DNA of 64,000 nt from Polyangiales bacterium (GCA_038231275.1 JBBRLQ010000002.1:544001-608000); one strand, 5' to 3'. Shown: positions 21,244-64,000, numbered from the stretch's first letter. The notes: generated by a model from the sequence alone, not told the origin. Numbers and translations are program-made.

Positions 21244-21280
21244 GGCCGTGGTTATAGCTCGTGGTACGGTCGAGAGTGCG

Positions 21281-26716: not shown

Positions 26717-26984
26717 GGGAACCCATACTGCAACGCTCGTACCGCGCGATTCGCGCCTCGCGGGGTCGACGCGGTCGACGGCGATCGGACGCGTCGACCC
26801 GCGTTCTGCGCCGAATACCAGCGCGATCCCCTCGGCTTGCGGGGGGGTGCTCGATTCGATCGCACCTGGAGCGATCGATTCCAGCAGGCCTGGTTCACGA
26901 GGACCACAGAGGGCCTCGCGCGTGCGCACATCCGCGCCGATCGACGCATGGACACCGATCGCGCCCTCCTTTAGCGTGGGGCGC

Positions 26985-29900: not shown

Positions 29901-30014
29901 GGCGACGAACCGGTCGTGGCGAAATGCATCGAGCAGCAACTCCACAACTGGTCCTTCCCGGCGCCGGGCGAAACGAAAACGGTGCAAATCCCGTTCGTGT
30001 TCGTGCGGCAATGA
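26985..30014 (+). CDS. Ser/Thr pseudokinase-STAND NTPase-TM-coiled coil-AgmX/PglI (TonB-C-like) protein
   Basis: VAVK, HPNV, HCNVKPSN, NFG, GTIGY; PFPGL, GLSGSGKSS, VDQLEE; TM FGVVLLVVSMIVGGALVY; C-terminal NWSFPAP...IPFVF. Confidence 0.85.
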   Translation: MSVFSPRIREFLAAPDDARRLGPYRCKELLDKAGSAPVYRAVEEHAGLSLREVAVKIFDIGQTKAGDAPEGWQARVVDEARALCRVQHPNVIRFHTISTDPKRGLMGLVMEFAEGVSVDKQLDGVPRGDAKRVALAVEIGIDIAAALAAAHEAGVVHCNVKPSNIMFTAGTHKLINFGIAASVRTDGAKDDGAKREALALDDLPPESIGRKASTLDKAGEGTKAPITGTIGYVDPVCLKTTSPPKAASDLYSLGATLYQCIAGDVPALATAKKAGGTGVDKKVLVGDATATPLADVAPSTPAALAKLVDSLVAPTREGRPRSAEVVLGELERIRSALAGRERALPPEERGPFPGLERYEESDRDVLFGRSAEIAGVIELARTRGLVGIVGLSGSGKSSITRAGLLPAIEEGALGGWPKKYRSVLVTPGKDLMAALSSALEKVLGAPVDTHPEAIAEQLAADVDAKGEGIVILVDQLEEIVTKYEAKNEKGRAAALDLLSRLAEAHVGLRVIVAVRRDLLDASLAIDPIFSRALSRGIQLLAPLSGSGWEEVVDRSLEAYGYRFEDADLRKQVLADLKGRASAMTLVQFGLTRLWGARDTKKKTIPRAAFSEKGGMQNALEEHAEAAIAAKEIPRDTLRHVLLAMTTPEGTRAHVELDVLVERYGAAAKEAIFALTKARLVVAEKDGFTFVHDAVLREWSLVRGWLQDARDDRLLVAHVERDAARWKESHDVAELWRQGRLAAAVELWKRDGSPLSDDAKAFLAAGVKEEQRAQRTRFGVVLLVVSMIVGGALVYAKLSHDSAEQARKDADALAAALTDVKSLKQQAEENAGEAATTAALLQELRKKMAEDQATYGANVAAAMKKVASATSLDSAQKATADLKAPTSAQNQMIPLLAGLAGGPSMPSPGGTGPSPSGGGGGFDQAAIERVVNSRKAGVKRTCLERSSSTASTTKVTATITIAPNGSVQNVSTAGDEPVVAKCIEQQLHNWSFPAPGETKTVQIPFVFVRQ

Positions 30015-34099: not shown

Positions 34100-37000
34100 C
34101 CGCGGACGACGAACCGCTCGACGTAACGCCGCACCAGCGCTTCGTCGACGGGCGGACAGGCGATCCCGGTTCCTTCGAGGGCGCACGCGGTCCGCGCCTC
34201 GTCGTATGTGGGGAGATGGAGCCAGTCGGTGTCCTCGTGGCCGACGAAGAGCGGCAAGAGCGGCGCGAGCGCGTTCCCCGTCGCCTCGGCGCGTTCCACG
34301 AGGACCGAGCGCCACTCCGCGTACGGCAGCTCCTCGAGCGGATACCCGAGGTCACGGATCCACGCGACGAGATCCGTCCACGGGACCGCGCGCGGGCCGA
34401 CGAGGTGATGGTTCCCCGACGACGGCGTCGACGTCAGCGCGATTCGGACGAGCGCGCTGCTCACGTAGTCGACCGGCGCCAGGTTGATCGGCGCGTCGAC
34501 GCGCGGCGCGAGACCGAGCTCCACGCAGCCCTTCATGAGCGCACAGACGAAGTCGTCGGGGTTGAACGCGCCGGAGGACGAGTGACCGGAGATGGTGCCA
34601 GGTCGATAGATCGTCGCGTCGAGGCCGCGCTGCCGTGCCTGCACGACGAGCTCCTCCGCCACCCACTTCGCGCGCATGTAGCCGAGCGGCAGTCGCTCGG
34701 GCTGGTCGGCGCGTGCGTCCTCGAGGACGGCGCCGTGACGGCCGAGCCCGCCGGGAAAGACGCCGATCGTCGACACATGGTGGAGACGCGCGCCCGCAGC
34801 AGCTGCGAGCCGCAGCACCTCCTCCGTGCCGCCCACGTTGCTCGCCTCGAGCGCCTCGTACGGGAAGACGAAATTCACCGAAGCGCCGCTGTGAAAAATG
34901 GTGTCGACGGTTCCCGAGAGCCGGTCGAACGCCAGAGGCTCGAGGCCGAACCGCGCCTTCGAGAGATCGCCGGGCACACACGCGACGCGCGCGGCGAGCT
35001 TCAACGCAGGGAGATCGTAGCGGGAGAGGATGCCCTCGAGGCGCCGAATGCCCTCGCTCGCGGTCCGCGCGCGGACGAGGCAGTGGACCGTCGCGTCGGT
35101 GCGCTCGAGCAGCTCGGCGAGCACGAACGCGCCGAGGAATCCTGTCGCGCCGGTGAGGAAGATCGCGCGAGGTGGGGTAGCGACGTGCGGCCTGAACGTG
35201 ATCGACTCGTCGAGGCGCGCCCTCTCGCGGAGCGAGAGAGGCACGTTCGTAGGCGACGGCAGGCTCTCTCCACCCAGCCGCGCCGACAGCTCCGCCGCGA
35301 GCTCGCGGATCGTGGGGCCGCGGAGGAGCCGCTCGGTCGGCAGCTCGATCTTCAGGTCCTCCGCCATCTTCGACTGGAGCTCGAGCGCGGTCAGCGAGTC
35401 GACGCCGAGGTCGATCAGCGATCGCTGCGGCGAAATCGGCTCGGGATCGTGAAGCACGGCGCCGGCGATCGTGCACAGATACGCCTCGAGCGCGGCGATG
35501 CGCTCGGGTGCCGTGCGGGATTGCAGCTTTGCGGCGAGCGCGCCGTCCGCTCGCGCCGCGGCGGGCTCGCCGAGCGGCACGAGGCGGGGCATGGACTTCG
35601 CGTGCGGATAGAACGAGGCCCACCGTCGCGCGTCGAAGGTCACTACGCCCACGGTCGGCGGTGCATCGACGGCGAGAACGTTTTCGAGGAGATCCGTGGC
35701 GTGCCGAACCGCGAGGCTCGAGACGCCGCGATCCGCGAGCTGCGCCACGGCCTTGGCGCCTGCGTTCGCAGCCATGCCGGTGTCCTCGATCACGGTCCAC
35801 GCGATGCTCGTCGCAGCCAAACCGCGCGCGCGCCGGTGCTCCGCGAGCGCGTCGAGGTACGCGTTGCCGGCGGCGTACGCGCTCTGACCCGGCATCCCGA
35901 GCAGCGTCGCCACCGACGAGTACATCACGAAGAAGTCGAGCGGCTGCGACGCCAGGAGCTCGTGGAGGTTTCGGGCGCCCGCCACCTTCGCGGCGTTCGA
36001 CGCGTCGAGCTGCTCGGGGTCGATCGCGGAGATCATGGCGGGCGACATCACGCCGGCCGCGTGGATGACGCCGCAGACGGGATGCTTGCGCACCACCGCT
36101 TCGAGCGCGTCGCGATCGGCCACGTCGGCGCGCTCGACCACCACGGTCGCCCCTCGAGCGGTCATCTCGGCGACCGCGGCGCGCGCCTCGTCCGTGGCGA
36201 CGCCGCGGCGGCCCACGAGTACGACTGTCTTCGCGCCGCGTTCGACGAGGCGCCGCGCCGCCGCGAGGCCCAAGCCGCCGAGGCCTCCCGTCACGAGGTA
36301 GGCCCCCTCACTGCGCAGCCGGAGGCGCGACGTCGGCGAAGGGAGCGGTTTGCGCTCGAGACGCGCGACGTACCGATCCGCTCCGCGAAGCGCCACCTCG
36401 AGCTCGCCGTCGTCGGACGACAGCTCGGCGAACAGCATGTCCGCATCTGCAGCGCGCTCGCCTCGCGCCAGATCGACGAGCGAGCAGCGAAGCCTAGGGA
36501 GCTCGTTCACGACGACGCGCCCAAATCCCCAGATCGTCGCGCCCGCGAGCGCCGACATGCTGGACTCGTCACCGACCACCTGCGCGCCTCGGGTGAGCAG
36601 CCACAGTCGCGGCTGCGCGGCCTCCCCCCGCCGCGCGAGCGCCTGAACGAGCCGCACCGTCGCGCCGAGATCGCCGTCGCAGAACTGGATGACGCCGGAC
36701 ACCGCATCGGAGGGCGCCAGCTCTCGGGCCATGCGCGCGCTGTGGCCGGCGCGCGCGAGCCGAAGGACGAGGGCCTTTGCGGTCGCGCCGCCGTCGCCGA
36801 GCACGAGCCACTCCCCCGGATCGTGCGGCGCCGACGACGGGCGGCCCGCGCGCATCCAGCTCGGCACGAGCACACCTTGCGGCAGCACGGTCGCGGCGTT
36901 CGGGGGCGCGAGATCGAGCCAGCTGTGCTCACGCTGCCACGGGTAGCTCCCGAGCGCGACGAAGCGCGCCTCCGCGTCGTCCAGGCGCTTCCAATCGACG

Positions 37001-38850
37001 TCGATGCCGAGGCAGTACAGCTCGCCGATCGCCTTCCGGATCGACGCGCGCTCGCCGAGCTCCGGCGCCCCCGACGCGATCACCGCGCCAGGGACGGCCG
37101 CGCGCGCGAGCACGTCGCGCAGCTCCTCGGTCAAGATGGGACGCGGGCTCAGCTCGACGAACACGGTGCCGTCCTCGCCGAGGCTGGCCGTCGCGGCCGA
37201 CAGATCGCGATGCGACGCATGGACGATCGCGTCCGGCACGACGCCGAGCTCGCGCCACACTTCGACGAGCGCGCGACCGCTCGCGGGATCGCACGCAGCC
37301 TCGTCGGGGAGGACGAAGACGAGCTTGTGCGCGCGACCCGGCACGACGCTGCCGGAGACGATCGACGCGATCTCTCTGGACGGCAGCACCACAATCGCGC
37401 GGCGGTGATCGTGATGGTCGCGGCGCGTCGCTGCGGTGTGGGCCAGGTCGACGAGCTCCACGACGGCGGACGCCAGGACCTCGCGGGTCCGATGTTCGAG
37501 CACGTCGAGCGCGGCGACGCTGCGCGCGGAGATGGGGATGAGCGACGCGCGTGGCGAGAGCTTCCTCGCGGTGGCCGGCGCGTCCGACGCGGCGAGGACG
37601 ATGTGCGCGTTGGTGCCGCCCATCCCGAACGAGCTCACCCCGGCAACGCGCTCGCCGTCGGGCCACGGCGCAGCCCGCGCCTGGACGTGGAGCCCACGCT
37701 CGTCGAGGCGCAGGTAGGGGTTCGGCGTCTCGAAGTTCAGGCTGGGCGCGAGCGTCCGGTGCTCGAGCGAAAGCACCGCCTTCATGAGACTCGCCACGCC
37801 CGCCGCCGACTCGAGGTGACCGAGATTCGTCTTCACCGAGCCGATCGCGCACGAGCGACCATGCACGCGCCCCTCGCCGACCACAGCGCCGAGCGCTGCC
37901 ACTTCGATGGGATCGCCGATGAGCGTGCCGGTGCCGTGCGCCTCGATGTAGGAGACGTCGCTCGGCGTCACGCCGGCGCGTCGGTACGCCGTGCGGAGCA
38001 CCTCTTCCTGTGACCACCGACTCGGCGACGTGAGCCCGTTCGAGCGTCCGTCCTGGTTCACCGCCGACCCACGAATGACGGCGTGGACGCGGTCGCCGTC
38101 GGCGAGGGCGCGCGACAGGCGCTTGAGCACGAGCAGCCCGACCCCCTCCCCTCGCACGATACCGCGGGCGCCCGCGTCGAACGCGCGGCACCGTCCATCC
38201 GTCGCGAGGAGCCCCGCGCGCCCGTAGAACACGTCCATCGTGCGATCGAGGATCACGTTCACGCCGCCGGCGATCGCGACGGGGCTCGACTCGTCGGCCA
38301 GGAGGCTCTGGCACGCCAGATGGACTGCGACGAGAGACGACGAGCACAATGTGTCGACGGAGAGGCTCGGCCCGCGCAAATCGAGGAGGAACGAGATCCG
38401 GTTCGATGCAATGGCGAGTGAGCATCCGGGTCCGAGCTGCGCGTCGATCTTGGAGAGATCCTGCGCGTGCCGCCGCGCGAAGTCCGCGTTCATGACGCCG
38501 ACGAAAACGCCGGTGGTGGTTCCCGAAAGCCCGGCGATCGGCTGACCGGCGTCCTCGAGCGCCTCCCACGCGACCTCCAGCAGCAGGCGCTGTTGCGGAT
38601 CCATTCGCGCCGCCTCGCGCGGCGAAATCCGAAAAAAACCGGCGTCGAAGCGATCCAGGCTTTCGAGGAAGCCACCGCGACGGCACGACGGCGCTTGCGC
38701 GACGAGCCACGGCGGCGGTTCGAGCTCCGGACGTTCCGCGGGCGGCTCACGAACGGCCTCGGCGCCGCGGACGAGGAGGTCCCAATACGCTGCCGGGCTC
38801 GGCGCGCCGGGGAATCGGCAGGCCATCCCTACGATAGCGACGGACTCCAT
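34078..38850 (-). CDS. Monomodular type I PKS: KS-(truncated AT)-KR-ACP-thioester reductase
   Basis: KS DTLCSSS/HGTGT/NLGH; KR VTGGLGGLG, SAYAAGN; ACP LGVDSL; R domain LTGATGFLG, GYMRAKWVAE. Confidence 0.92.
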   Translation of the reverse strand: MESVAIVGMACRFPGAPSPAAYWDLLVRGAEAVREPPAERPELEPPPWLVAQAPSCRRGGFLESLDRFDAGFFRISPREAARMDPQQRLLLEVAWEALEDAGQPIAGLSGTTTGVFVGVMNADFARRHAQDLSKIDAQLGPGCSLAIASNRISFLLDLRGPSLSVDTLCSSSLVAVHLACQSLLADESSPVAIAGGVNVILDRTMDVFYGRAGLLATDGRCRAFDAGARGIVRGEGVGLLVLKRLSRALADGDRVHAVIRGSAVNQDGRSNGLTSPSRWSQEEVLRTAYRRAGVTPSDVSYIEAHGTGTLIGDPIEVAALGAVVGEGRVHGRSCAIGSVKTNLGHLESAAGVASLMKAVLSLEHRTLAPSLNFETPNPYLRLDERGLHVQARAAPWPDGERVAGVSSFGMGGTNAHIVLAASDAPATARKLSPRASLIPISARSVAALDVLEHRTREVLASAVVELVDLAHTAATRRDHHDHRRAIVVLPSREIASIVSGSVVPGRAHKLVFVLPDEAACDPASGRALVEVWRELGVVPDAIVHASHRDLSAATASLGEDGTVFVELSPRPILTEELRDVLARAAVPGAVIASGAPELGERASIRKAIGELYCLGIDVDWKRLDDAEARFVALGSYPWQREHSWLDLAPPNAATVLPQGVLVPSWMRAGRPSSAPHDPGEWLVLGDGGATAKALVLRLARAGHSARMARELAPSDAVSGVIQFCDGDLGATVRLVQALARRGEAAQPRLWLLTRGAQVVGDESSMSALAGATIWGFGRVVVNELPRLRCSLVDLARGERAADADMLFAELSSDDGELEVALRGADRYVARLERKPLPSPTSRLRLRSEGAYLVTGGLGGLGLAAARRLVERGAKTVVLVGRRGVATDEARAAVAEMTARGATVVVERADVADRDALEAVVRKHPVCGVIHAAGVMSPAMISAIDPEQLDASNAAKVAGARNLHELLASQPLDFFVMYSSVATLLGMPGQSAYAAGNAYLDALAEHRRARGLAATSIAWTVIEDTGMAANAGAKAVAQLADRGVSSLAVRHATDLLENVLAVDAPPTVGVVTFDARRWASFYPHAKSMPRLVPLGEPAAARADGALAAKLQSRTAPERIAALEAYLCTIAGAVLHDPEPISPQRSLIDLGVDSLTALELQSKMAEDLKIELPTERLLRGPTIRELAAELSARLGGESLPSPTNVPLSLRERARLDESITFRPHVATPPRAIFLTGATGFLGAFVLAELLERTDATVHCLVRARTASEGIRRLEGILSRYDLPALKLAARVACVPGDLSKARFGLEPLAFDRLSGTVDTIFHSGASVNFVFPYEALEASNVGGTEEVLRLAAAAGARLHHVSTIGVFPGGLGRHGAVLEDARADQPERLPLGYMRAKWVAEELVVQARQRGLDATIYRPGTISGHSSSGAFNPDDFVCALMKGCVELGLAPRVDAPINLAPVDYVSSALVRIALTSTPSSGNHHLVGPRAVPWTDLVAWIRDLGYPLEELPYAEWRSVLVERAEATGNALAPLLPLFVGHEDTDWLHLPTYDEARTACALEGTGIACPPVDEALVRRYVERFVVRGYMPRPR

Positions 38851-39098
38851 TATTTCGTGCTCACCGCCGCGGCGAGATGACGTGCGAGCGCTTCGATCGT
38901 GGAGTGATCCCAGAGGAGCGTCGGATCGAGGCTGAGCCCGAGCCACTTCTCGAGCACGCCGACGAGGTGCACGGCTTCGATCGACGCGATCTCGTAGCTC
39001 GCGAAGGGCTCGCGCACATCCACGCGCTCGATGGGAATGCGCGCGGCAGCGGCGACTTCCACGACGATGCGATCGCGGATCTCTTTCTCGGTGGGCAA
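38850..39098 (-). CDS. Stand-alone acyl carrier protein
   Basis: TTG start with GAGGAG RBS; PFASYEIASIEAV...LDPTLLWDHSTIEALARHL; TAATG overlap with PKS start. Confidence 0.85.
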   Translation of the reverse strand: MPTEKEIRDRIVVEVAAAARIPIERVDVREPFASYEIASIEAVHLVGVLEKWLGLSLDPTLLWDHSTIEALARHLAAAVSTK

Positions 39099-39100
39099 CG

Positions 39101-40765
<1,665 letters not shown>

Positions 40766-40871
40766 CAGCAGAAGACTCTACGCGGCGCCGCAGGCTCAGG
40801 CATCGGAAGGACTCCCCATATTGCGCGATGGGCCTCCCCACGTTGCCGTTTGTTGGTACCATTATCCCGAC

Positions 40872-44322: not shown

Positions 44323-44703
44323 TCAGGTCGCCGTCGCGAGCTTGTCCCAATAGTTGGACTGCCACCCTTTCGCCAGGTGCTCCTTCATGTCCGCCGGAAA
44401 GCCATCGTGGTCGAAGACGACCTTGGTCCCCGCTCCGTCACCCTCCAGCTCGAACCGTACGATCGAGTAGAGCCCCTCCGGCCACGTCTTCGCGCGCCAG
44501 GCCTGCACGACGCGCTTTCCCGGTACCAGCTCCACGTGGCGGCCGGTGATGTGCCCGCCGAACGACGTGAACGGCGCGCCCTCGGTGGAGTCGCCGGTCG
44601 CAGGCGCCCCGGTCACCTCCGCGAAGCGCTTCGCGTCGACGAGGGCTTGGAAAATGCGTGCCGGTGCGGCGCCGAGCGTCACGACCTGATGAATGTTCGA
44701 CAT
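44323..44703 (-). CDS. SRPBCC/AHSA1-like protein
   Basis: IHQVV...FGGHITGR..ELVPGKRVVQAWR...GWQSNYWDKL; AAGGAG RBS. Confidence 0.88.
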   Translation of the reverse strand: MSNIHQVVTLGAAPARIFQALVDAKRFAEVTGAPATGDSTEGAPFTSFGGHITGRHVELVPGKRVVQAWRAKTWPEGLYSIVRFELEGDGAGTKVVFDHDGFPADMKEHLAKGWQSNYWDKLATAT

Positions 44704-44759
44704 GGCGAGATCTCCTTGTGGCGAATCGTTAAACCATTCGGTATAGTGATCCTCACTGC

Positions 44760-45128
44760 ATGTCAACGCGCAACGCCGCTACCCGTCGCGACGAAAAGTT
44801 GGACCTCGTCTTCTCCGCGCTGGGTGACACGACGCGGCGGCACATCCTCGCGCGCCTCGCCCGTGGGCCCCTGTCGATCACGGCGATCGCGGCGCCCTTC
44901 GAGATCACCCTCCCCGCCGTCTCCAAGCACCTCCGCGTCCTCGAGCGCGCGGGACTGCTCCGCCGCGAGCGCGACGGGTGGTACCACCGCTGCCACCTGG
45001 AGACGCGGCCGCTCGAGAGCGCCGTCGCCTTCCTGGCGAAATACAGGCCGTTCTGGGAGGACACGCTCGAGGCGCTCGCGCAGCACGTGGAGGCACCCGT
45101 GAAGAGAGAGGGATCCGATCATGAGTGA
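44760..45128 (+). CDS. ArsR/SmtB family regulator
   Basis: VFSALGDTTRRHIL...AVSKHLRVLERAGL. Confidence 0.92.
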   Translation: MSTRNAATRRDEKLDLVFSALGDTTRRHILARLARGPLSITAIAAPFEITLPAVSKHLRVLERAGLLRRERDGWYHRCHLETRPLESAVAFLAKYRPFWEDTLEALAQHVEAPVKREGSDHE

Positions 45129-45561
45129 AGGCATCACGCTCGTCACGAGACGCACCATTCGCGCGACGGCCGCGCGCCTCTTCGACGCGTGGACACAGCC
45201 CGAGCAGCTCCGCGCGTGGTGGGGCCCGCGACCGGTGACGTGCGCGGGCGCCGAGGTGGATCTGCGCGTCGGCGGTCGCTACCGCATCGCGAACGCGTTG
45301 CCGGACGGGAACACGCTGGTTATCGAAGGCGAGTTCCAGGTCGTCGATGCACCGCACAGGCTCGTCTACACGTGGCGCGCCGGAGATGACCAAGGCTCTC
45401 GCGTGACCGTTCGCTTCGAGCCGCGCGGAGACGCGACCGAGGTGATCGTCGTCCATGAGCAGATTCCGAACGAGCGCGTCCGCGAGTCGCACGAAGGCGG
45501 GTGGAACGGCTGCTTGGAGGGGCTCGAGGCCTTTTTCGACCGCAGCAGCGCCTCGGGTTAG
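45121..45561 (+). CDS. SRPBCC/AHSA1-like protein
   Basis: LFDAWTQPEQL..WWGP, DLRVGGRYR, HEGGWNGCL. Confidence 0.9.
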   Translation: MSEGITLVTRRTIRATAARLFDAWTQPEQLRAWWGPRPVTCAGAEVDLRVGGRYRIANALPDGNTLVIEGEFQVVDAPHRLVYTWRAGDDQGSRVTVRFEPRGDATEVIVVHEQIPNERVRESHEGGWNGCLEGLEAFFDRSSASG

Positions 45562-55119: not shown

Positions 55120-55530
55120 TCAGCCCGCCGTGGCCAACGCCGACGTCTTCCGTCGATAGAAATAGTAGGAGAGGGCTTCGAGGACGAACGTTCCCACCGA
55201 CCAGCCCCACGCCGCCACGCCCTCACCCACCGAGAGGTGCGCGATCAGCGCCGAGACGAGGACGATGGCGAACCCCGCATAGGCCCACTCCTTCAGCACC
55301 CGCGGGGCCATGGGCAGGACCAGGACGGCGATCCCAAGGAGCTTCGCGACGCAGAGCTCGATGCGAAAGTAGTCCGGGAATCCGAGGCGGGCGAAGACTT
55401 CGGCGGCTTGGGGGATGCGAAGGTGCGCGTACGCCGTGAAGCCCATCTGGAGCGCGAACAGCGCCGTGAAGACCCAGTACGCGGTCACTGCGCCCTTGGA
55501 ATTCTTCGTGCTGCCGTCCCGCGCCTTCAC
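55120..55530 (-). CDS. DoxX-like membrane protein
   Basis: FARLGFPDYFRIEL..AKLLG...KEWAYAGF; GTGA overlap. Confidence 0.88.
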   Translation of the reverse strand: MKARDGSTKNSKGAVTAYWVFTALFALQMGFTAYAHLRIPQAAEVFARLGFPDYFRIELCVAKLLGIAVLVLPMAPRVLKEWAYAGFAIVLVSALIAHLSVGEGVAAWGWSVGTFVLEALSYYFYRRKTSALATAG

Positions 55531-55967
55531 GCAATCTCCGCCAGAACCGCGCCCAAGCGCTGGCCCACCATGAACTGCCAGCCCATCTTGGCGCCTTGGA
55601 AAAACCTCGCCTCCCCTTTGCCGGTCCGGAAGCCCGAGTGCTCCAGACGCAGCAACGTGCCGCCGGTCCTGGTCGGCGTCAGCGTCCACGTGACCACCGT
55701 GTCGTCGAGGCCGCCGCCTCCCCACGAATAACGAAGGCGCGTGTGCGGCTCGATCTCCTGCATTTTGCAATTCACGGTCCCATCCCACCCCGGGCCCGAC
55801 GGCGCCTTGAACGTGAAGGCTTTCCCGATGACAGGGTCCAGATCGGTCGACATGAGCCACTTCGCGAGCAGCGCGGGCTCGGTGAGCGCGCGCCACACCT
55901 TCGCGGGTGCGTGGGGGAGGTCGAGCTCCATCGAGATCGACTGTGTCTCTTCGGCCTTGTCGTTCAT
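55527..55967 (-). CDS. SRPBCC domain protein
   Basis: KVWRALTEPALLAKWLM...GTLLRLEHSGF. Confidence 0.9.
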   Translation of the reverse strand: MNDKAEETQSISMELDLPHAPAKVWRALTEPALLAKWLMSTDLDPVIGKAFTFKAPSGPGWDGTVNCKMQEIEPHTRLRYSWGGGGLDDTVVTWTLTPTRTGGTLLRLEHSGFRTGKGEARFFQGAKMGWQFMVGQRLGAVLAEIA

Positions 55968-56281
55968 TCGTCCATCTCCTCGAGCAACGCTCGAAGCCCT
56001 TCGAGCCGTTCGACCCAGAACGCTTGGTAGTGCGCGATCCAATCGACGAGCGGGCGCAGCCCCGTCAGCTTGACGCGGTAGTAGACGAGGCGGCCCTCGC
56101 GACGCTCGTCGACGAGGCCCGCCTCACGAAGCACCGCGAGGTGCTGGGACACGGCCGGCTGCGAAATGCCCGCGCGAGGGGTGAGGTCCCGCACGGCCGC
56201 CTCGCCCTTCGTCAGCTGCTCGAAGAGCGCTCTGCGACTCGGGTCGGCCAAGGCGCGGAAGACACGGTCCTGGCTGAGCAC
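55964..56281 (-). CDS. ArsR/SmtB family regulator
   Basis: VFRALADPSRR...ISQPAVSQHLAVLREAGLV. Confidence 0.93.
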   Translation of the reverse strand: MLSQDRVFRALADPSRRALFEQLTKGEAAVRDLTPRAGISQPAVSQHLAVLREAGLVDERREGRLVYYRVKLTGLRPLVDWIAHYQAFWVERLEGLRALLEEMDE

Positions 56282-56285
56282 GTCA

Positions 56286-56311
56286 AATCAATAAGCCACG
56301 GCTTATTGATT
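56286..56311. promoter_or_regulatory. ArsR-type operator (12-2-12 inverted repeat)
   Basis: Perfect AATCAATAAGCC-AC-GGCTTATTGATT directly upstream of the arsR-like start. Confidence 0.8.
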
Positions 56312-56329: not shown

Positions 56330-58114
56330 TCAGAGCCGTGGGCGCCACATCGCGGTGCCGAGGACCATGAAGGCCTTCACGTCGTCGCCGGTGATGGCCT
56401 CGCCTTGCACCGTGAAGAGGAGCACCGAGCTCGGAAAGATCATCGCGGTGCCGCCGAACGCCGACTGCACGAGCGAGGAATGGATCGAGCGGTATTGAAT
56501 GGTCGCGTAGCGGTAGTAGCTCGAGAGATCGAGGACATCGCGGAAGAGGCTCACGCCCGGGCCCGCGCTGCCGCCGTACATGTCGAGGTAGGTCGCGTGC
56601 GAGTAGTTCGCGGACGCGTCGATGCGAAGGATCTTGGCGATGCGAACGACCCGGGCCGCGGCGAAACCGCCCGTCATGCTCGGCTCGTCGCTCACGCCGA
56701 GATCGCCGACCCTGGTGCCGCCGAGGACCAGCGAGAACGTGCCCAGCTCGACGCCGGCGTCGATCGCGCCGACCGCCCGCTTGCTCACCTTTCCGTCGCA
56801 CACCTCGGGGGCCGGAGGAGCGCCGACGGCGGCGGGGATGGTTCGGCAGAACCAGGTGATGGGCAGGTACGAGGCGAGCCAGCGCGAGCGAATCGGTTGG
56901 CGAATGTCGGTACGGACGCCGAATTGGAAGGGGCCGATGCGCGTCGACGCGTCGAAGCCCGCGGCGGTGAGCTCGATCGCCGAAGCTCCCCAAGGGTTGT
57001 CCTTCGAAAAATTCGTGACCTCGAACGTGCCGCCGATGCGCGCGGGTCCTGGGTAGATCCCGACCACGCCCGAGACGCGGCGCTCGTCGAGAGATCCGCC
57101 GAACGTCGTGCCGTGCGCGACGAGCGCGGCTTCGGGGCGCAGGTCCGCCTCCGGTCGACTGAACGCTGCTTCTACGCCGAAGCGCTGCGCGTCGACGGCC
57201 GGCGCGCCGCTCAGCGGATCGGGCAAGACGCCGCCGAACGCGCCGACCGAGAATCCGCCGCCGACGGGCGCCCGCAGGCGGAGACCGTCGAGCGTGCCCA
57301 GCGTGCTCGCCGCGTAGCGCATGCGCCCGATCCCCGCGAAATAGCCGGCGCGGCTGTAGCTGGCGAGGGCCTCGCGGAGCCAGATCGTCGGACGCGCCGA
57401 TCCCCCATCGCGTGTGCTGAGGGGCGTCGCGGCCCAACGCTGGACCGACGCGTCGAAGTCGAACGCGACCGGCGCGGCGAACGGCTCGGCGTGGATGCGC
57501 GCGTTGATCTCCACGTGGCCGATCCCCGCGCCACGCGGCCCGATCGGGAGCAGCGCGCCCGCCGATGTCGACAGACGAACGTCCCAACGCCGGCTGCGCT
57601 CCGCGTCACCCAGGGGGACATACTTCGGCTTCTGCGCGCTCGCCGGCGCGGTCTCGTCCGTCCACCCCTGCTGCCACGTCGCCAGCGGCCGCGGCGGCGG
57701 GAGCTCCTTCGCCTTCTCGGTATCCTCGCCGACGATCGAAGCCTTCCCCTTCTCCTGCTCGCGGAGGAGATCGTCGCCGGTGTCCACGATCGCGAACGAC
57801 GCGGTCGATTGGACCACCGGGTATTCTTTGCGATCGATCGTGACCTTCGATCCTCTGTGCACGCCGCCCGCGGTGCCCGGCTTCACGTACGCCGCGCGGC
57901 CCGCGACTTCGACGACGACGACGTCGATCGACGTGGCGCCGCGCGGAGGAGGAGCCGGCGGAGGCACCGACACTGGACCGGGGGCTGGCGCGGGGACGTG
58001 CGCAGGCGCGGGCAGAGGCTTGGGCTTCGGCTTCCGCTGCGCCGCGGCCGTCGACGCGACGAGGCTCACGGCGAGCGCGAGGAGGCTCGCGACGTGGAGG
58101 ATCGAGAGCCTCAT
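56330..58114 (-). CDS. Probable outer-membrane beta-barrel (porin of cytochrome conduit)
   Basis: Sec signal ending AAA-Q; C-terminal ~400 aa of alternating amphipathic strands; ATGA-coupled to decaheme gene. Confidence 0.65.
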   Translation of the reverse strand: MRLSILHVASLLALAVSLVASTAAAQRKPKPKPLPAPAHVPAPAPGPVSVPPPAPPPRGATSIDVVVVEVAGRAAYVKPGTAGGVHRGSKVTIDRKEYPVVQSTASFAIVDTGDDLLREQEKGKASIVGEDTEKAKELPPPRPLATWQQGWTDETAPASAQKPKYVPLGDAERSRRWDVRLSTSAGALLPIGPRGAGIGHVEINARIHAEPFAAPVAFDFDASVQRWAATPLSTRDGGSARPTIWLREALASYSRAGYFAGIGRMRYAASTLGTLDGLRLRAPVGGGFSVGAFGGVLPDPLSGAPAVDAQRFGVEAAFSRPEADLRPEAALVAHGTTFGGSLDERRVSGVVGIYPGPARIGGTFEVTNFSKDNPWGASAIELTAAGFDASTRIGPFQFGVRTDIRQPIRSRWLASYLPITWFCRTIPAAVGAPPAPEVCDGKVSKRAVGAIDAGVELGTFSLVLGGTRVGDLGVSDEPSMTGGFAAARVVRIAKILRIDASANYSHATYLDMYGGSAGPGVSLFRDVLDLSSYYRYATIQYRSIHSSLVQSAFGGTAMIFPSSVLLFTVQGEAITGDDVKAFMVLGTAMWRPRL

Positions 58115-59145
58115 CGGCGCGCTCCTCCCGGGTGGCAGCTGAGGCACGAGGCACCGTCGCTCGCGACCGGTTTCTTGTGCTGCTGCATCAGGCGCATCGG
58201 ATCGTGCGTGTGGCAGCCGATGCATCGCACCGCGCGGGGCACCGCCGGCGAGGAGTGGCAGTCCTCGCAGGTCGCGGTGCGGTGCACGCCGAACGAAATC
58301 GGGAACCGCAGATCGTGGCCGGCCGGCGCAGCACGCAGACCGCTCGTCACCGCGCTCGTCCCGGTTCCTGGGATCGTCGCCGGCACCCACGCGATCGCGC
58401 GGTGGCAAAGGCTGCAATCGCGAGGGAACGGCGGGGTCGTGGCGTCACCCACGTGAGAAGGCCGCAGATCAGGCCGGCGGAAGTCCTTCTCGTGACAGGC
58501 GAAGCACTCGATGGGCGCGCCCGTCCAGCGGTGCTCGCTGGCGCGGCGATGGCACTCCGAGCAGTCCGCGAGCACGTGCATCCCGGTCAGCGGGAAGCGC
58601 GTCATGCGATGGATCTCGAGCGGCCTCGTCACCTTCCATCCGGCCGGCGAGTGGCAGTTGTCGCAGGATCGCGAGAGGCGCCCGCGATGGAAGTCCTCGT
58701 GGCAGCTGATGCACGATCGCTTGATGGCGCGCGTGCTGTTGTGGCACGAGACGCACGACGCGTGAATGTGCTGTCCGGTGAGCGGAAAGCCGGTGGTCGA
58801 GTGATCGAACTTCACCTCGCCGCCCGCCGCGTCCTTGTCCTTCCACGCGGTGGTGGAGTGGCATGCGCTGCACGCAACCGCGTCGGTGAAGCTCCGCTTG
58901 GCGGCCGCGCCCGCGGGGGATGGCGAGGTCGCGGCCTGCGTTGCGGACGGGGCCGGTGCGGCGGGCGGGGGGGACGAGGCCGACGGCGGCGGCGGGGCGG
59001 ACGAAGCGGACCACGCGGACGGCGCCGGCGCGAGAGGCGGGGGGCCGCCCGCCGGGGTTGCGCCCGGCTGCGCAAACGCGATCGGAGCGAGCGCGGCCAC
59101 GAACAGGCACAGCGCGAGCGCGAGGGTGCGGGGCGCGGTCGTCAT
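58111..59145 (-). CDS. Decaheme cytochrome c
   Basis: Signal peptide, Pro/Ala/Ser linker, 10 CxxCH counted by hand. Confidence 0.92.
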   Translation of the reverse strand: MTTAPRTLALALCLFVAALAPIAFAQPGATPAGGPPPLAPAPSAWSASSAPPPPSASSPPPAAPAPSATQAATSPSPAGAAAKRSFTDAVACSACHSTTAWKDKDAAGGEVKFDHSTTGFPLTGQHIHASCVSCHNSTRAIKRSCISCHEDFHRGRLSRSCDNCHSPAGWKVTRPLEIHRMTRFPLTGMHVLADCSECHRRASEHRWTGAPIECFACHEKDFRRPDLRPSHVGDATTPPFPRDCSLCHRAIAWVPATIPGTGTSAVTSGLRAAPAGHDLRFPISFGVHRTATCEDCHSSPAVPRAVRCIGCHTHDPMRLMQQHKKPVASDGASCLSCHPGGARR

Positions 59146-60983
59146 AGCTCCGCCCGCGCTTCGTGAGGGTTGGCGTGGCAGAACTTGCACTCGTTCGACG
59201 AGAGCCGCCACCGGATGGTCGGCTTGGCTTCACCGCGTACCGGCGCCATCGCGTGGCACTTCACGCACTCGGCCTTCGCGTGCTTCCCGGTCAACGCCCA
59301 GCCGGTGATCGCGACGTGATCGAAGCCCGGGATCTTGAACGCCTTCGTCGAGTGACACTTGTCGCACTCCTGCACCGGGGCCTTCATGCGGAACTGGCCG
59401 AGGTGAATGTCCTCGTGGCAGCCGCCGCAGTTGCGTGGCACGCCGCGGTAGCTCGCGCCGCTTCCCTTCTTGCGATCTTCGGGCGTCGGGTGGTGGCAGC
59501 TGTCGCACTGGGCCGTGGCGTGCACGCCGGTCAGCGGCCAGATGCGGTGATCGATCTTCGGGAGCTTCCATCCATTCGACTCGTGGCACTGCGCGCAGCC
59601 CCCGATCGCCATCTCTTTCGCGAACTGGTTGCCGTGCGGATTCGCGTGGCAGTCGGCGCACACTTGCTTGACGACGTGGAGATCCATGCGCGGGCGCGCC
59701 GCCTTGTGGCACTCGGAGCACGGCGTCGCGATGTGCTTGCCGATGAGCGGGAAGCGCGTCGTCGCGTGCGAGACCACGCTGAAGAGCGTGGGATAGAACC
59801 CCGGCGTCGCGTGGCACGGAGCGCACTCGCCTTTGTCCGCCTTGACGAACTCGCCCTTGTGCTTGTCCTCGTGGCAGTCTGCGCAGCGACCGAACGCGAG
59901 CTTTCGGTAGCGTGCCTCTCGTGGGATCTCCGGTTTGTGGCAGCCCGCGCACGGCGTGGCCTCGTGCTTGCCGGTGAGCGGGTACTCTGTCCGCGGATGG
60001 GCGGCGAGGCCGACGGACCGCGCCAGACCGAGCCACTGGATCGACGCGTGGCAGCTCCCGCACGCGCGTCCGAACGGCGCCTTGTGGATCGGCCGATGGC
60101 ACGACGCGCACTCTCGTCCCTTCGAAGGTGCGACGAGGTTGCCCTTGTCGTGGCACGTCTTGCACGCGACCTGCGCGTGTCCGTTGCCGAGGCTCGTGCC
60201 CGGATGCTTCGCGCCGCCGTGCTTGAACGTCACCGGCTTCCACTTCGTGTCCTCGTGGCAGTCGGGGCACGACGGACCGAGGCGCCCGTCGTGGACGTCC
60301 TTGTGGCAATCCTGGCAGACGGCGAACTTGAGCCCGACGTACTTCGGCGGCTCCATGTGGCACTTCGCGCAGAGGACCTTCTGGTGCGCGCCGCGCAGCG
60401 GAAACTTCGAGAGATCGTGGTCGAAGGTCTTGAGGTTGAGCTCCTTCCACGCCGTCTCGTTGTGGCAGTTGAGGCACGTCGCTCCGAAGCGCCCTTGGTG
60501 TTGATCCTTGTGGCACGGCACGCACGTCGTCCCGAGGCCGAGGAACGTCGGGTTGCCGCGCGCGTTGCTCTTGGTGTGGCACTTGTTGCACGCCGTCGTC
60601 TGGTGCGCGCCGTTCAGCGGCCAGCCGGTCTGCGCGTGATCGAGCTTGGTCTGATCTCCACCGGGCCATCGCATGAGCGCCCTCGCGCCCAGGTGCTCGG
60701 CGTGGCATTTCTCGCACGCCTGCCCCTTGAACTGGCGGCCGTGGAGGCCTTGCCCCGCCGCGATCCGCCCGCCGAGATCGCCGTGGCACTTGAGGCAGCC
60801 GCTCTGGTCGACGCGCTTTCCGGAGCTGTGGCATTCGCTGCAGTGCGTGTCTCCTTCGAGCGAGGCGTGCGCCTTCGACATCGGCCCCGGCGAAAGAAGC
60901 TGCGCGCGCGCGACACGGGCGGACACCATCACCAGAAAGGCGACCGCAACGCCGAGGACCACGCGGACGAGCGTCCGCTTCAT
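59142..60983 (-). CDS. 23-heme cytochrome c
   Basis: Signal MKRTLV...VARA-Q; 23 CxxCH counted by hand in ~613 aa, in three-heme repeats. Confidence 0.93.
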   Translation of the reverse strand: MKRTLVRVVLGVAVAFLVMVSARVARAQLLSPGPMSKAHASLEGDTHCSECHSSGKRVDQSGCLKCHGDLGGRIAAGQGLHGRQFKGQACEKCHAEHLGARALMRWPGGDQTKLDHAQTGWPLNGAHQTTACNKCHTKSNARGNPTFLGLGTTCVPCHKDQHQGRFGATCLNCHNETAWKELNLKTFDHDLSKFPLRGAHQKVLCAKCHMEPPKYVGLKFAVCQDCHKDVHDGRLGPSCPDCHEDTKWKPVTFKHGGAKHPGTSLGNGHAQVACKTCHDKGNLVAPSKGRECASCHRPIHKAPFGRACGSCHASIQWLGLARSVGLAAHPRTEYPLTGKHEATPCAGCHKPEIPREARYRKLAFGRCADCHEDKHKGEFVKADKGECAPCHATPGFYPTLFSVVSHATTRFPLIGKHIATPCSECHKAARPRMDLHVVKQVCADCHANPHGNQFAKEMAIGGCAQCHESNGWKLPKIDHRIWPLTGVHATAQCDSCHHPTPEDRKKGSGASYRGVPRNCGGCHEDIHLGQFRMKAPVQECDKCHSTKAFKIPGFDHVAITGWALTGKHAKAECVKCHAMAPVRGEAKPTIRWRLSSNECKFCHANPHEARAEL

Positions 60984-61891
60984 TAGAAGATCCACCGAAA
61001 GCCGTAGTACCAGGCGACGCCGATGTGCACCGACACGCTGAGGACCATCAAGAGCGCGAGGAAGCGATGAATCGAGCGCCACGAGCGCATCACCGCTCCG
61101 CCGGCGTGCGTGTCGACTTCCGAGGCCGCGAGCTGGCCGAGCTCCTCGATGAGCGCGCGAACGAACTTGGGGTCTTTTACTTCGACCACGCGCGCGAGCT
61201 TGTCGCCTCGAACGGCCTCTCCCATTCCGCGCCGCCGTTGCCTGGCCTCGAGGATCCAACGCGGCATCGTCACAACCGCGCGAAAGATCGACGCGTCGGC
61301 CGGGAGCCGCGTCACCGGCGCCGTCTTGACGAACTCCTCCACGCGCTTCGCGACGCCGGGCAACAGCGGCTGAATCTCCGCGAGTCGGTCCTTGAGCGGC
61401 TTGAGACCCGCCTTTGGGACGAGCGCGTAGAGGTAGAGGCCGATGAGGCCCGTGAGGACCACGATGCCGAGGCTCACCGACGTGAGCGTCGCGATCGGCG
61501 TGCGCAGCTGGAACGCCGAGTGGAACACCACGAGCAGCGACCCCACGAGCCCGGTGAAGACGTGGATGTTGAGCCACGTCTTCATGGTGCCGAACGAGTC
61601 TGGGATGTAACGGGCGAACCGCCGCCGCACGAGGTAGAGCAGGTTCGTCAGGATCAGCGCGGTCCCGACGATGCCGTAGCCGTGGCCCAAGAACCCGGAG
61701 GGGCTCAGCGTCCGGAAGTCCTGATGGTCGACGCGGGCGTCGAGGGAGAGCCGGTAGTAGCTCATGCCGCGCCAGAAGAGGAGCGCGGTCAGGAGCACGA
61801 GAATGAGCACCGTGAGGACCAGCGCGATGCGCCGCGGCTTCGCCGGCTCCGGCCCACCCGCGGGTCCGCTCGTCGTGACGACCTGGCTCAT
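60983..61891 (-). CDS. Inner-membrane protein, putative di-heme cytochrome b / ferric-reductase-like TM domain
   Basis: About 5 TM helices; two helices each with H-x13-H; TAATG-coupled to the 23-heme gene. Confidence 0.75.
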   Translation of the reverse strand: MSQVVTTSGPAGGPEPAKPRRIALVLTVLILVLLTALLFWRGMSYYRLSLDARVDHQDFRTLSPSGFLGHGYGIVGTALILTNLLYLVRRRFARYIPDSFGTMKTWLNIHVFTGLVGSLLVVFHSAFQLRTPIATLTSVSLGIVVLTGLIGLYLYALVPKAGLKPLKDRLAEIQPLLPGVAKRVEEFVKTAPVTRLPADASIFRAVVTMPRWILEARQRRRGMGEAVRGDKLARVVEVKDPKFVRALIEELGQLAASEVDTHAGGAVMRSWRSIHRFLALLMVLSVSVHIGVAWYYGFRWIF

Positions 61892-62011
61892 TGGCTCCCC
61901 AGGAGACCAGAGACGCGCGCGCTCGTACCAGACAAATCCGGCGCACTCCTGCCCTCCGCGATCGATCCTCGAGCGGATCTTCGGCTCAGCGTCATCCGTG
62001 CCTGGTGTGAA

Positions 62012-62635
62012 TCAGAATCCGTCGGAGCGGCGCGCCGCGAGTGCGACCGCGCTCACCGTCTGCGGCGGCGCCCGGCGAGGCGCGCGAGTGGCCTTGCGCG
62101 AGTTTCTCTTCTCCGGCGTCGCGGTGGCCGACGGCGCGTCCTTCGCCGGCTTCGCCTCCGGCGTGATCGGCTTGGCGGCAGGGGCGACCGGAGAGACCGC
62201 AGCGAGCGGCGAGACCGGTGCGACGTTGGTGACCGTCGGCGGTGCAGCGATCGGCGCGGCGACCGGCGCAGGTGCAGGCGCGGCTACCGCGGCGACGACT
62301 GCAGGAGCAGCGACGGGCGCATCCGTCGCGCCGCGCCCCAGAACGATCGCGTGCCCTCGCTCGACGATGAACGACCGCGTCGACCCATCCACGAAGATCG
62401 CGCCGACGACGACGAGGAGGGCCGCGGCGATTACGTACCGGACCTTCCCGTGACGCTTCTTCGGGGCGATGCCCTGAAGCGCGTTGAAGAACGCCGGGCT
62501 CAGCTCGACGAGGGCCGTCTGAATTTCCGTGAGCGACTCGAACGCCCTGCGGATGACCGGCGGGTCGTAGTCCGTCGCGTCTAGGAGGGCCAATCGACGC
62601 GCGCTCGAGGGGGGAGGGTTAGCCACGTTCGACAT
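62012..62635 (-). CDS. Hypothetical single-pass membrane protein with Pro/Ala-rich tail
   Basis: One TM (YVIAAALLVVVGAIFV); low-complexity C-terminus. Confidence 0.6.
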   Translation of the reverse strand: MSNVANPPPSSARRLALLDATDYDPPVIRRAFESLTEIQTALVELSPAFFNALQGIAPKKRHGKVRYVIAAALLVVVGAIFVDGSTRSFIVERGHAIVLGRGATDAPVAAPAVVAAVAAPAPAPVAAPIAAPPTVTNVAPVSPLAAVSPVAPAAKPITPEAKPAKDAPSATATPEKRNSRKATRAPRRAPPQTVSAVALAARRSDGF

Positions 62636-62788
62636 GCGCTCTGTAGGTGGGGTGCCAGCCTTTGGAGGCGGCAGGAAAGAGCAGTCACCGGCAAAAAATC
62701 GCCTGCTTACCTGGATCTTCGACGCACCGGCGGCGTCGCGCCGCGCGCTTGAGCTATCGCCAAATGACCATGAATCGCGTAGTTAGAG

Positions 62789-62806
62789 TGGATCGTAAAC
62801 GATCCA
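62789..62806. promoter_or_regulatory. Perfect inverted repeat (operator or hairpin)
   Basis: TGGATCGT-AA-ACGATCCA. Confidence 0.45.
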
Positions 62807-62841
62807 GCCGCTCGTTGCTCCTCTAGTTAGTACTCCAACGC

Positions 62842-64000
62842 CTACTTCACGCCGGCCGCGTGGCACTTCAGGCAATAGTTCGTCGTCACGTCCCCGGTCG
62901 GGTAGTTCGGGACGGGGCCTCCGCCGTCGGGCCGTGAGAGGTGCCAGGCGTCGATGGCCGGGCTGACGTGCGAGCCGAGGTGGCAGTGGATGCAGTCGGT
63001 GTTCGCGCCGCCGGCCGAAACGCCCTTCGCGAGGACGTGGCAATCCTGGCAGGTGATGCCGGGGTTCGCGTGGATGCCCGTAGTCACCGCGAACTTCGCC
63101 TCGGGGTGAGGCCCAGTGATCGCCGGCTTCCAGCCCGCCATCTGGTGGCAGTTGAGGCACGTATGCGGGAACGTCGAGTGGTTCGGGAACGTGCTCGCAT
63201 CCGCAGCCGCCTTGTGACACGCGTAGCAATCGGTCGTCGTGCCTTTGTACACGGGCGTCGGGCCCGTATGGCAGCCGACGCACGCGACGAGGACGTGCTT
63301 CCCCTGAAGCGGCCACGTGTGATTGTAGGAGCTCGGCTTCCATCCGGCTGCCGTGTGGCAATCCGAGCAGCTCGTGGAGAGCCCCTTGTGGATCGGGCTC
63401 GCCGCCTTGTCGGCATCCTTCTGGTGGCAGTCGGTGCACCCCTTGGGCGTGCCCTTGTAGAGCGGCGGATCGCCGGTGTGGCAGGAGTTGCACGGCGTGG
63501 TCGCGTGCACGCCGTCGAGCGGCCACGGATGCTGGAACGTCGACGGCTTGAACCCGACGTCGTTGTGGCAAAGCTTGCAGTCGAGCGGAAAGCCGGTGTG
63601 CTTCGGAGCGGTCGCGCCGTCGTAATCTTTTTTGTGGCACCCCTGGCAGTCCGTCGGCGTTTCGTTTGGATGGAAGCCGGTCGTGTGGCACGCCGTGCAC
63701 GTCGGGCCCACGTGCTTGTTCTGGAGCGGCCACCAGAAGTGGTTCTGCACTTGGGCGGGAACCCAGCCCTGCGTCGAGTGGCAGTCGTTGCACGTGTTCG
63801 GCAATTTGCCGACGTGCACGGGGTTCGCCGCCGCGTTGTAGCCCGCGGCGTGACACGAGTAGCACGCGGTGTTCTTCGCCTCCGCCGTGTCGTGGATGTT
63901 CTGCTGCCGGCCACACGCGAACGCGGCGACGAGCGCGGCGACGCCCAACGAAATCGTCAGGGCCGCGTGCGCTCGTCCTTTGGGGAGTGTGGCCGGTGGC
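62842..64000 (-). CDS. 14-heme cytochrome c lipoprotein (frame open to window edge; start probably outside the window)
   Basis: AAFAC lipobox-like; 14 CxxCH counted by hand; no stop upstream of 63948. Confidence 0.9.
   Translation of the reverse strand, partial: PPATLPKGRAHAALTISLGVAALVAAFACGRQQNIHDTAEAKNTACYSCHAAGYNAAANPVHVGKLPNTCNDCHSTQGWVPAQVQNHFWWPLQNKHVGPTCTACHTTGFHPNETPTDCQGCHKKDYDGATAPKHTGFPLDCKLCHNDVGFKPSTFQHPWPLDGVHATTPCNSCHTGDPPLYKGTPKGCTDCHQKDADKAASPIHKGLSTSCSDCHTAAGWKPSSYNHTWPLQGKHVLVACVGCHTGPTPVYKGTTTDCYACHKAAADASTFPNHSTFPHTCLNCHQMAGWKPAITGPHPEAKFAVTTGIHANPGITCQDCHVLAKGVSAGGANTDCIHCHLGSHVSPAIDAWHLSRPDGGGPVPNYPTGDVTTNYCLKCHAAGVK

Follow-up and report, generated by a model that had tools for sequence, protein, structure and literature searches.

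A candidate trans-envelope electron conduit with 47 c-type heme motifs in a Polyangia-type bacterium

Polyangia are common bacteria of soils and sediments that are usually treated as aerobic predators and decomposers. Can such a bacterium pass electrons across its whole cell envelope and, if it can, from which donor and in which direction? These questions are raised by one end of a 64,000-nucleotide stretch of a Polyangiales genome (GCA_038231275.1, JBBRLQ010000002.1:544001-608000; this entire stretch is termed the window), where six minus-strand genes, in a region with a G+C content of 65-72%, fill positions 56330-64000 and encode three multiheme cytochromes, an inner-membrane protein (IMP), a candidate outer-membrane beta-barrel and a small membrane protein (Table 1). 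The window probably holds most of an electron conduit of the porin-cytochrome kind, and the evidence leans toward a conduit that is fed by NAD(P)H and runs outward.

A sequence-only reading of the window had noticed four genes joined by stop-start overlaps and 47 CxxCH motifs, and both are confirmed. The junctions of the last four genes (IMP, 23-heme cytochrome, 10-heme cytochrome and barrel) are TAATG, ATGA and ATGA overlaps, the last shared by the 10-heme and barrel genes, and the three cytochromes hold 14, 23 and 10 motifs. Between 58111 and 64000, CxxCH occurs 24 and 23 times in the two coding minus-strand frames and 0 times in the other four, while all six frames of 1-56329 combined contain 3. 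With 47 motifs in the cluster against 3 in the remaining 56 kb, the concentration is real and far beyond chance. The same reading had placed a 14-CxxCH lipoprotein gene about 1 kb upstream; its stop codon is indeed 951 bases upstream of the IMP start, but a sixth gene between the two had been missed.

Table 1. Genes of the cluster at the end of the window, with positions counted from its first letter
Feature	Position	Strand	Remark
14-CxxCH cytochrome, lipoprotein-type leader	62842..64000	-	5' end clipped by window edge
207-aa single-pass membrane protein, Pro/Ala-rich tail	62012..62635	-	not a core part
Inner-membrane protein (IMP), 302 aa	60983..61891	-	candidate di-heme b cytochrome
23-CxxCH exported cytochrome, 613 aa	59142..60983	-	candidate periplasm-spanning wire
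10-CxxCH exported cytochrome, 344 aa	58111..59145	-	predicted inside barrel
Candidate outer-membrane beta-barrel, 594 aa, no heme motif	56330..58114	-	candidate porin

The arrangement is conserved well beyond this genome. A genome scan with a single peptide pattern and one genome per species gave 67 loci, a number that is a lower bound and leans to close relatives; all of them are metagenome-assembled genomes (MAGs), and the window's own genome is not among them. They are labeled Polyangiaceae, Sandaracinaceae, Kofleriaceae, Haliangiales, Myxococcales or delta proteobacterium, with one Acidobacteriota and one Proteobacteria, and none is labeled Anaeromyxobacter. The host itself is an uncultured soil myxobacterium of a Polyangia-type lineage and lies outside the known metal reducers. 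In the closest relative (locus L004) the IMP is 93% and the barrel 81% identical to that of the window, and the DNA is colinear with window positions 63972-56326 at 83-85% identity. The order IMP, 23-heme cytochrome, 10-heme cytochrome and barrel is kept on one strand in 52 of the 54 loci that have at least 5.3 kb of sequence downstream of the IMP gene, nearly all of them labeled Polyangia, the exceptions being L065 and L067. Hemes in the 52 loci were counted on stop-to-stop frames, some odd values coming from fused or broken frames; the open reading frame (ORF) orthologous to the large cytochrome holds 23 hemes in 33 loci, 20 in 14 and other values in 5, and that orthologous to the second cytochrome holds 10 in 45 and other values in 7. 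Clustering of all ORFs from the 67 loci yielded only lineage-specific further partners (MMPL, kinases, phosphofructokinase), which is a weak negative result given that the GC3 filter used missed many true genes.

That the last gene of the cluster encodes a beta-barrel, as the sequence-only reading had proposed, is borne out by structure prediction. The protein starts with a signal peptide, and in its AlphaFold2 model (44 sequences, pLDDT 81.9, pTM 0.62) a Pro-rich, disordered linker precedes a small beta domain at residues 62-126, after which come 22 long strands over residues 177-590. Foldseek comparison with the PDB gave 341 matches at E<=0.001, all those shown being outer-membrane barrels (MOMP, pilus ushers, OprD/Occ channels and AlgE), and since these matches have TM-scores of <=0.47 the fold class is clear while the family is new. 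A feature search of the Atlas likewise returned outer-membrane barrel families, in clusters that are unnamed or generically named. By sequence at least 181 homologues were found at E<=0.001 among 8000 scored candidates, all without a functional name ("hypothetical"), and the few that have an organism label come from Polyangiaceae, Labilithrix or Myxococcota MAGs. The family has no Pfam or NCBIfam match at E<=0.01, and no Pfam domain is found on any of its homologues.

Modeling of the barrel (residues 60-594) together with the 10-heme cytochrome (residues 86-344), using for each a 47-row alignment from the related loci, gave ipSAE values of 0.84, 0.84 and 0.87 in three runs, with 0.00 for the best of three controls. 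The runs share at least 74% of their contacts, and the pLDDT of the partner is at least 70. In the modeling tool's own test the ipSAE mark is reached by 116 of 157 solved complexes and by 2 of 215 mismatched pairs, counts that hold only roughly here, with self-made alignments. On the barrel the contacts fall on alternate strand residues all round (for example 384/386/388/390/392 and 566/568/570/572/574) and on the cytochrome at residues 123-259, and this pattern reads as what a 10-heme cytochrome threaded through the lumen of the barrel would give. It is accordingly very improbable that there is no trans-envelope wire at all, the cytochromes forming a periplasmic electron store or a reductase of metals or other oxidants and the barrel being an ordinary export or uptake channel. 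Exopolysaccharide-export barrels are among the feature look-alikes of the barrel, and some proteobacterial plasmids, described below, encode a reductase, an IMP homologue and a small cytochrome among heavy-metal genes and have no barrel, from which it follows that the inner module can work alone. Nevertheless, the barrel gene is joined to the 10-heme gene by the ATGA overlap and is colinear with it in the 52 loci, the complex model puts the cytochrome in the lumen while the controls score 0.00, and separate lipoprotein cytochromes accompany the cluster in 31 of the 67 loci.

All three cytochromes match Pfam Cytochrome_C7 (78.9 bits for the 14-heme and 84.5 bits for the 23-heme protein) and related c3 families, and none reaches the cut-off of any curated named NCBIfam family, including the DmsE/MtrA decaheme and the Geobacter Ext models. 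The 23-heme protein has an N-terminal hydrophobic leader, is probably periplasmic and is densely loaded, with 26.7 residues per heme and a motif spacing that repeats as 35/18/16, as would be expected of stacked c7-like triheme units; a search of PDB sequences returned 0 matches at E<=0.01. For the 10-heme protein the profile finds in the PDB generic c3-type matches only (nine-heme cytochrome c, hydroxylamine oxidoreductase (HAO), a 16-heme cytochrome and chain 3ov0), and the alignment of 47 sequences shows no variation in the ten CxxCH motifs or in nine additional His, which would fit bis-histidine electron-transfer hemes. The hydrophobic leader of the 14-heme protein ends in ...LVAAFAC, and comparison with the complete, 82% identical 385-aa copy in L004 indicates that the window edge clips the gene by about two codons. 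Its homologues in the 31 loci lie on either strand; 29 of them hold 5, 8, 11, 14, 17, 20 or 23 hemes (= 3k+2) and 27 pass a loose lipoprotein-leader test. The 14-heme lipoprotein is hence a better candidate for a surface cytochrome than the 10-heme protein. Across loci L001-L067 the heme numbers of the 14- and 23-heme homologues step by three (5, 8, 11, 14, 17, 20, 23), and it looks from the sequences as if triheme units were gained and lost as cassettes.

At the other end of the conduit, the IMP has five hydrophobic helices and carries WLNIH-x13-H at residue 106, WRSIH-x13-H at residue 271 and TGLIG at residue 147. The family is large (1961 cluster representatives at E<=0.001, of which 597 reach E<=1e-10 and 63 reach E<=1e-30), and W106, H110, H124, G148, G151, W271, H275 and H289 are invariant in 49 IMPs that are 24-61% identical. 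We infer that the IMP is a five-helix di-heme b cytochrome that carries electrons across the cytoplasmic membrane. Both His-bearing helices would run from cytoplasm to periplasm, because of the positive-inside rule, and H110 with H275 and H124 with H289 would hold the inner and outer heme, respectively. The AlphaFold2 model has a pLDDT of 90.4 and a pTM of 0.81. The last helix scores 22.5 bits against DUF4405 (PF14358; Pfam cut-off 26.7) and a sub-threshold 17.8 bits against the prokaryotic cytochrome b561 / Ni_hydr_CYTB family, and a precomputed PF14358 label is found on 13 of 120 close homologues, among the matches listed. A metagenomic protein of 867 aa (P0279) combines the N-terminal part of an IMP with c7/c3-type cytochrome domains in one chain, which may reflect a genuine fusion or an error in the assembly or the reading frame.

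What feeds the IMP? The sequence-only reading had proposed an entry from the quinone pool and had also suspected that the cluster continues beyond the window edge. A continuation is seen in L004, where the sequence upstream of the 14-heme gene encodes a sigma-70 factor of the Myxococcales type that scores above the NCBIfam cut-off, a 449-aa flavoprotein that combines a membrane helix at its N terminus with a 4Fe-4S dicluster and a Pyr_redox_3 FAD/NAD(P) domain, a pair of small exported proteins, and a 1097-aa lipoprotein cytochrome with 21 CxxCH, 4 CxxxxCH and 2 CxxxCH motifs. None of these genes has a copy in the window, and in the present genome they would therefore lie past position 64000, if present.

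A homologue of this 4Fe-4S/FAD flavoprotein adjoins the cluster in 64 of the 67 loci. It is divergent and next to the IMP gene in 34 loci, upstream on the same strand in 3, just after the barrel gene in 19 and nearby in 8; the 3 loci where it was not found are two contigs of <3 kb and one contig that ends just after the barrel gene. In addition, 7 of 12 long IMP-family proteins that were scanned carry a Pyr_redox_3 domain before a C-terminal IMP domain, 5 of these 7 also with a 4Fe-4S dicluster domain; among the others, one has c-type cytochrome domains after the IMP domain, one has DUF4405 only and three gave no match. The nearest solved relatives of the flavoprotein (YpdA/Bdr, thioredoxin reductases and TrxR-type ferredoxin-NADP reductases) are NADPH-dependent, and its best NCBIfam match is YpdA, below the cut-off.

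The same association is found in a different phylum. A translated search of plasmids with the IMP returned two records. In Emticicia oligotrophica DSM 17448, a culturable member of the Bacteroidota, the module lies on the 100-kb plasmid pEMTOL02 (5818-18402; L068) in the order ccsA, IMP homologue, flavoprotein, 635-aa cytochrome, 40-heme cytochrome and 538-aa exported protein; a GW-domain protein is also encoded in the region, and all genes are annotated only generically. The IMP homologue carries both WX3HX13H motifs and is directly followed by the flavoprotein, which is 38% identical to that of L004 (E 3e-105), and the 635-aa cytochrome has exactly 23 CxxCH motifs and is 35% identical from end to end to the 23-heme protein of the window (E 6e-119). 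When compared by profile, the barrel family and the 538-aa protein showed no significant similarity (probability 3.5%, E 0.012), although GR...DG...FGG...PD residues are shared in the aligned stretch.

A second and unrelated type of reductase accompanies the IMP family on proteobacterial plasmids. On that of Methylophaga pinxianii (L069, 7073-10850) a FAD_binding_6/NAD_binding_1/2Fe-2S reductase is encoded ahead of the IMP homologue and a small c7-type cytochrome, and on plasmid pSLPG of Sphingobium sp. SYK-6 (L070, 2330-6117) a reductase annotated as 2Fe-2S iron-sulfur cluster-binding protein likewise stands before an IMP homologue and a small c7-type cytochrome; the pSLPG homologue matches the IMP profile with an hhalign probability of 99.4% (E 1e-21). 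Both three-gene modules sit among heavy-metal resistance genes and are followed by a DUF1622 gene, and they may be periplasmic metal reductases fed by NAD(P)H. Similar small cytochromes occur on 26 further plasmid records (25 from sphingomonads, 1 from Pontibacter), the neighborhood having been inspected for one of these, pSLPG. The named relatives found come from Myxococcota, Bacteroidota, Sphingomonadales and Methylophaga.

Hence four independent arrangements, namely the 64 loci, the fusions, Emticicia and the proteobacterial plasmids, tie the IMP family to a cytoplasmic reductase of the NAD(P)H type, and because the flavoprotein adjoins the IMP or is fused to it, the entry point is likely cytoplasmic NAD(P)H rather than quinol. 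The quinone-pool entry proposed earlier does not hold up well against this. In such a scheme the IMP would be a quinol dehydrogenase or quinone reductase that moves electrons between the quinone pool and the surface, and the flavoprotein would have some other role or would merely top up the flow. It draws on He et al. (2017; Front Microbiol 8:1584), who proposed the role of a quinone-active cytochrome b for IMPs with the same motifs in the predicted PCC3 type of conduit, as well as on the sub-threshold similarity to cytochrome b561, a quinone-reactive family, and on the IMP standing in the window with no reductase gene beside it. Given the adjacency in nearly all loci, the fusions in other lineages and the two unrelated reductase types tied to one IMP family, and with no quinone-binding motif or partner identified in the analyses run, we regard an entry from the quinone pool as unlikely.

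A conduit fed by NAD(P)H would operate as follows. The membrane-anchored 4Fe-4S/FAD flavoprotein, expected just beyond the window edge in this genome, would oxidize cytoplasmic NAD(P)H, and electrons would pass from its FAD via the iron-sulfur (Fe-S) clusters to the two b hemes held by the four invariant His of the IMP. The IMP would deliver them from the cytoplasmic face of the membrane to the 23-heme periplasmic cytochrome with its putative c7-like triheme units, which would hand them to the 10-heme cytochrome threaded through the 22-strand barrel. Lipoprotein cytochromes at the surface, the 14-heme one and probably the larger one beyond the window edge, would then receive the electrons, and the outward flow would end at Fe(III), Mn(IV), humic substances or possibly O2.

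Could electrons instead move inward, from Fe(II), Mn(II), minerals or a partner cell, as has been proposed for the PCC3 clusters of iron oxidizers? The architecture and the heme numbers match those of PCC3, which is found in Fe(II) oxidizers according to the published descriptions. Multiheme wires are also reversible in principle. An inner end linked to NAD(P) would, however, make flow from Fe(II) strongly uphill on the basis of standard potentials, and against the membrane potential; moreover, the carriers belong to heterotrophic lineages with large genomes, and no marker of carbon fixation or of Fe(II) oxidation was seen within the window. Inward flow is therefore judged improbable.

Several points weigh against a conduit that is fed by NAD(P)H and directed outward. 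The flavoprotein gene is absent from the window, and its presence in this genome rests on L004. Comparison of the IMP model with the PDB by Foldseek gave 0 matches at E<=0.001, and the di-heme b assignment consequently rests on the motifs and the sub-threshold DUF4405 match. Polysaccharide-export barrels are, as noted, among the look-alikes of the barrel. Its complex with the 10-heme protein was modeled heme-free and, as a solved porin-cytochrome complex exists, likeness to that complex may contribute to the score, although neither protein belongs by sequence to the porin-cytochrome families. No cytochrome-maturation genes were seen within the window, and every Polyangia locus is a MAG.

If the cluster does work as proposed, its meaning could be wider than a single lineage. 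Tentatively, and with more doubt than confidence, the Fe-S flavoprotein, di-heme b IMP, 23-heme wire and cytochrome-filled barrel may together represent an unnamed machine, found across phyla, that carries cytoplasmic reducing power directly to the cell surface and bypasses the quinone pool. Such a machine would amount to a bacterial equivalent of NADPH oxidase or ferric reductase, extended by a wire of cytochromes. Soil Polyangia, and members of the Bacteroidota such as Emticicia, would employ it in the reduction of extracellular Fe(III), Mn(IV) or humics; alternatively, it would reduce O2 and thereby drive reactive-oxygen or Fenton chemistry while the cells prey on others or decompose organic matter. 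The conduit would give Polyangia an extracellular redox chemistry that current metabolic surveys leave uncounted, and E. oligotrophica DSM 17448, which has the same module on its plasmid, offers a culturable test organism.

The sixth gene of the cluster encodes a protein with a 64-residue cytoplasmic head and one strong hydrophobic segment at residues 65-83. It has sub-threshold Pfam and NCBIfam matches only, and its homologues among the 67 loci are confined to L004 (54%) and a fragment in L044. It might conceivably act as an anti-sigma-like regulator, as a sigma factor is encoded at the opposite end of the cluster in L004. A scan for promoters and terminators found no more sites than in shuffled sequence. 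The barrel gene is the 3' end of the cluster and is followed on the same strand by an unrelated ArsR / AHSA1 / DoxX trio (55120-56287), one of two separate small sets with an ArsR-family regulator and AHSA1/SRPBCC proteins, the other being at 44323-45561. Elsewhere in the window, a single-module polyketide synthase (KS, KR, carrier and terminal reductase domain, about 1735 aa) lies beside an AMP-binding acyl ligase at 34078-40777 on the minus strand, with an acyl-CoA dehydrogenase divergent from the pair, and two genes of typical myxobacterial signaling are on the plus strand, a Ser/Thr protein kinase fused to a STAND NTPase (26454-30014, about 1186 aa) and an FHA-domain sigma-54 activator (20918-22546).

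Among the known systems, MtrCAB, MtoAB and PioAB are similar to the cluster in that a decaheme cytochrome is predicted inside a barrel and a lipoprotein cytochrome is the candidate outer partner. They differ in that the inner-membrane entry in the window is not a tetraheme quinol dehydrogenase of the CymA type and that a single 23-heme protein would bridge the periplasm. The DmsE/MtrA model (TIGR03508) gives no match for the 10-heme protein and, for the 14-heme protein, 30.1 of the 192.2 bits required; for the barrel there is no match to any Pfam or NCBIfam family, MtrB/PioB-type porins included, and the best scores against the Geobacter models (ExtN, ExtO and the GSU2203 decaheme) are 18.9-21.7 bits against cut-offs of 200-325. 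Judged by these profiles, the cluster belongs neither to the Mtr/Mto/Pio nor to the Geobacter families. The likeness to porin-cytochrome complexes suggested by the sequence-only reading is upheld at the level of the barrel fold and the lumen model and is not matched by membership in an MtrA- or MtrB-type family. The literature searched, a limited collection, does not describe this cluster for Myxococcota or Polyangia.

The inner module resembles the ferric reductase/NADPH oxidase domain, as well as MsrQ together with its flavin reductase, in that the IMP has two pairs of His spaced 13 apart on parallel helices and a cytoplasmic NAD(P)H/FAD module is fused to it or encoded beside it. It differs in having five helices rather than six, a 4Fe-4S dicluster in the reductase, and a multiheme c cytochrome as acceptor in place of O2, Fe(III) or MsrP. 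The IMP has no match at E<=0.01 to the ferric reductase domain (pfam01794 in He et al., 2017), and its Foldseek search reached STEAP1 only at E 2.4. Heme b binding has been demonstrated with a purified protein of the DUF4405 family (PMC11334425), a family that the last helix of the IMP weakly matches and whose label several close homologues bear. The published DUF4405 proteins, by contrast, are six-helix proteins that accompany ApbE flavinylation genes rather than multiheme cytochromes (PMC11334425).

The closest likeness in the IMP itself is to the predicted PCC3 and PCC4 types, whose IMP has about 300 residues and five helices with SGXXG on helix 4 and WX3HX13H on helices 3 and 5, and is likened by He et al. 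(2017) to a di-heme ferric reductase domain. PCC4 shares the motif set, a 10-heme cytochrome and a porin with the window, and one PCC4 subgroup has an Fe-S protein gene beside or fused to the IMP. This gene is of another Pfam type (pfam13247), however, and the three cytochromes of PCC4, with 4, 5 and 10 hemes, are all periplasmic, none being extracellular, whereas the window has cytochromes of 23, 10 and 14 hemes.

The resemblance to PCC3 noted in the sequence-only reading is sustained by the IMP motifs and by the heme numbers. Both consist of four parts in the same layout: an IMP of about 300 residues, a porin and two multiheme cytochromes, one of them periplasmic with >20 hemes (He et al., 2017; Hoover et al., 2023, a preprint on Gallionellaceae). 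The motif set of the window IMP, with T for S in TGLIG, is invariant across the 49 relatives, the 23 and 10 hemes lie inside the published ranges (21-27 in the periplasmic cytochrome, which is reported with 21, 24 or 27, and 10-35 in the second or extracellular one) with a low ratio of about 26 residues per heme, and the barrel gene adjoins a multiheme cytochrome gene. The cluster thus matches the PCC3 type in layout, heme numbers and IMP motifs, as compared by description only. A profile of 22 distant IMP relatives found no PCC3 carrier among the 120 matches listed, the two named organisms in that list both being Bacteroidota (Prolixibacteraceae and Sunxiuqinia). The differences are that the carriers are Myxococcota and not Alpha-, Beta- or Gammaproteobacteria, the main text and the caption of Table 3 of He et al. 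(2017) naming proteobacterial classes only; that the 22 strands of the barrel are many fewer than those given for PCC3 porins (up to 42); that the predicted place of the 10-heme protein is in the barrel rather than outside it; and that a 4Fe-4S/FAD flavoprotein is a conserved neighbor in the relatives of the window cluster and is not part of the PCC3 description. The recurrent tie between the IMP family and cytoplasmic NAD(P)H reductases offers a testable answer to the question that PCC3 and PCC4 share, namely what feeds the conserved IMP.

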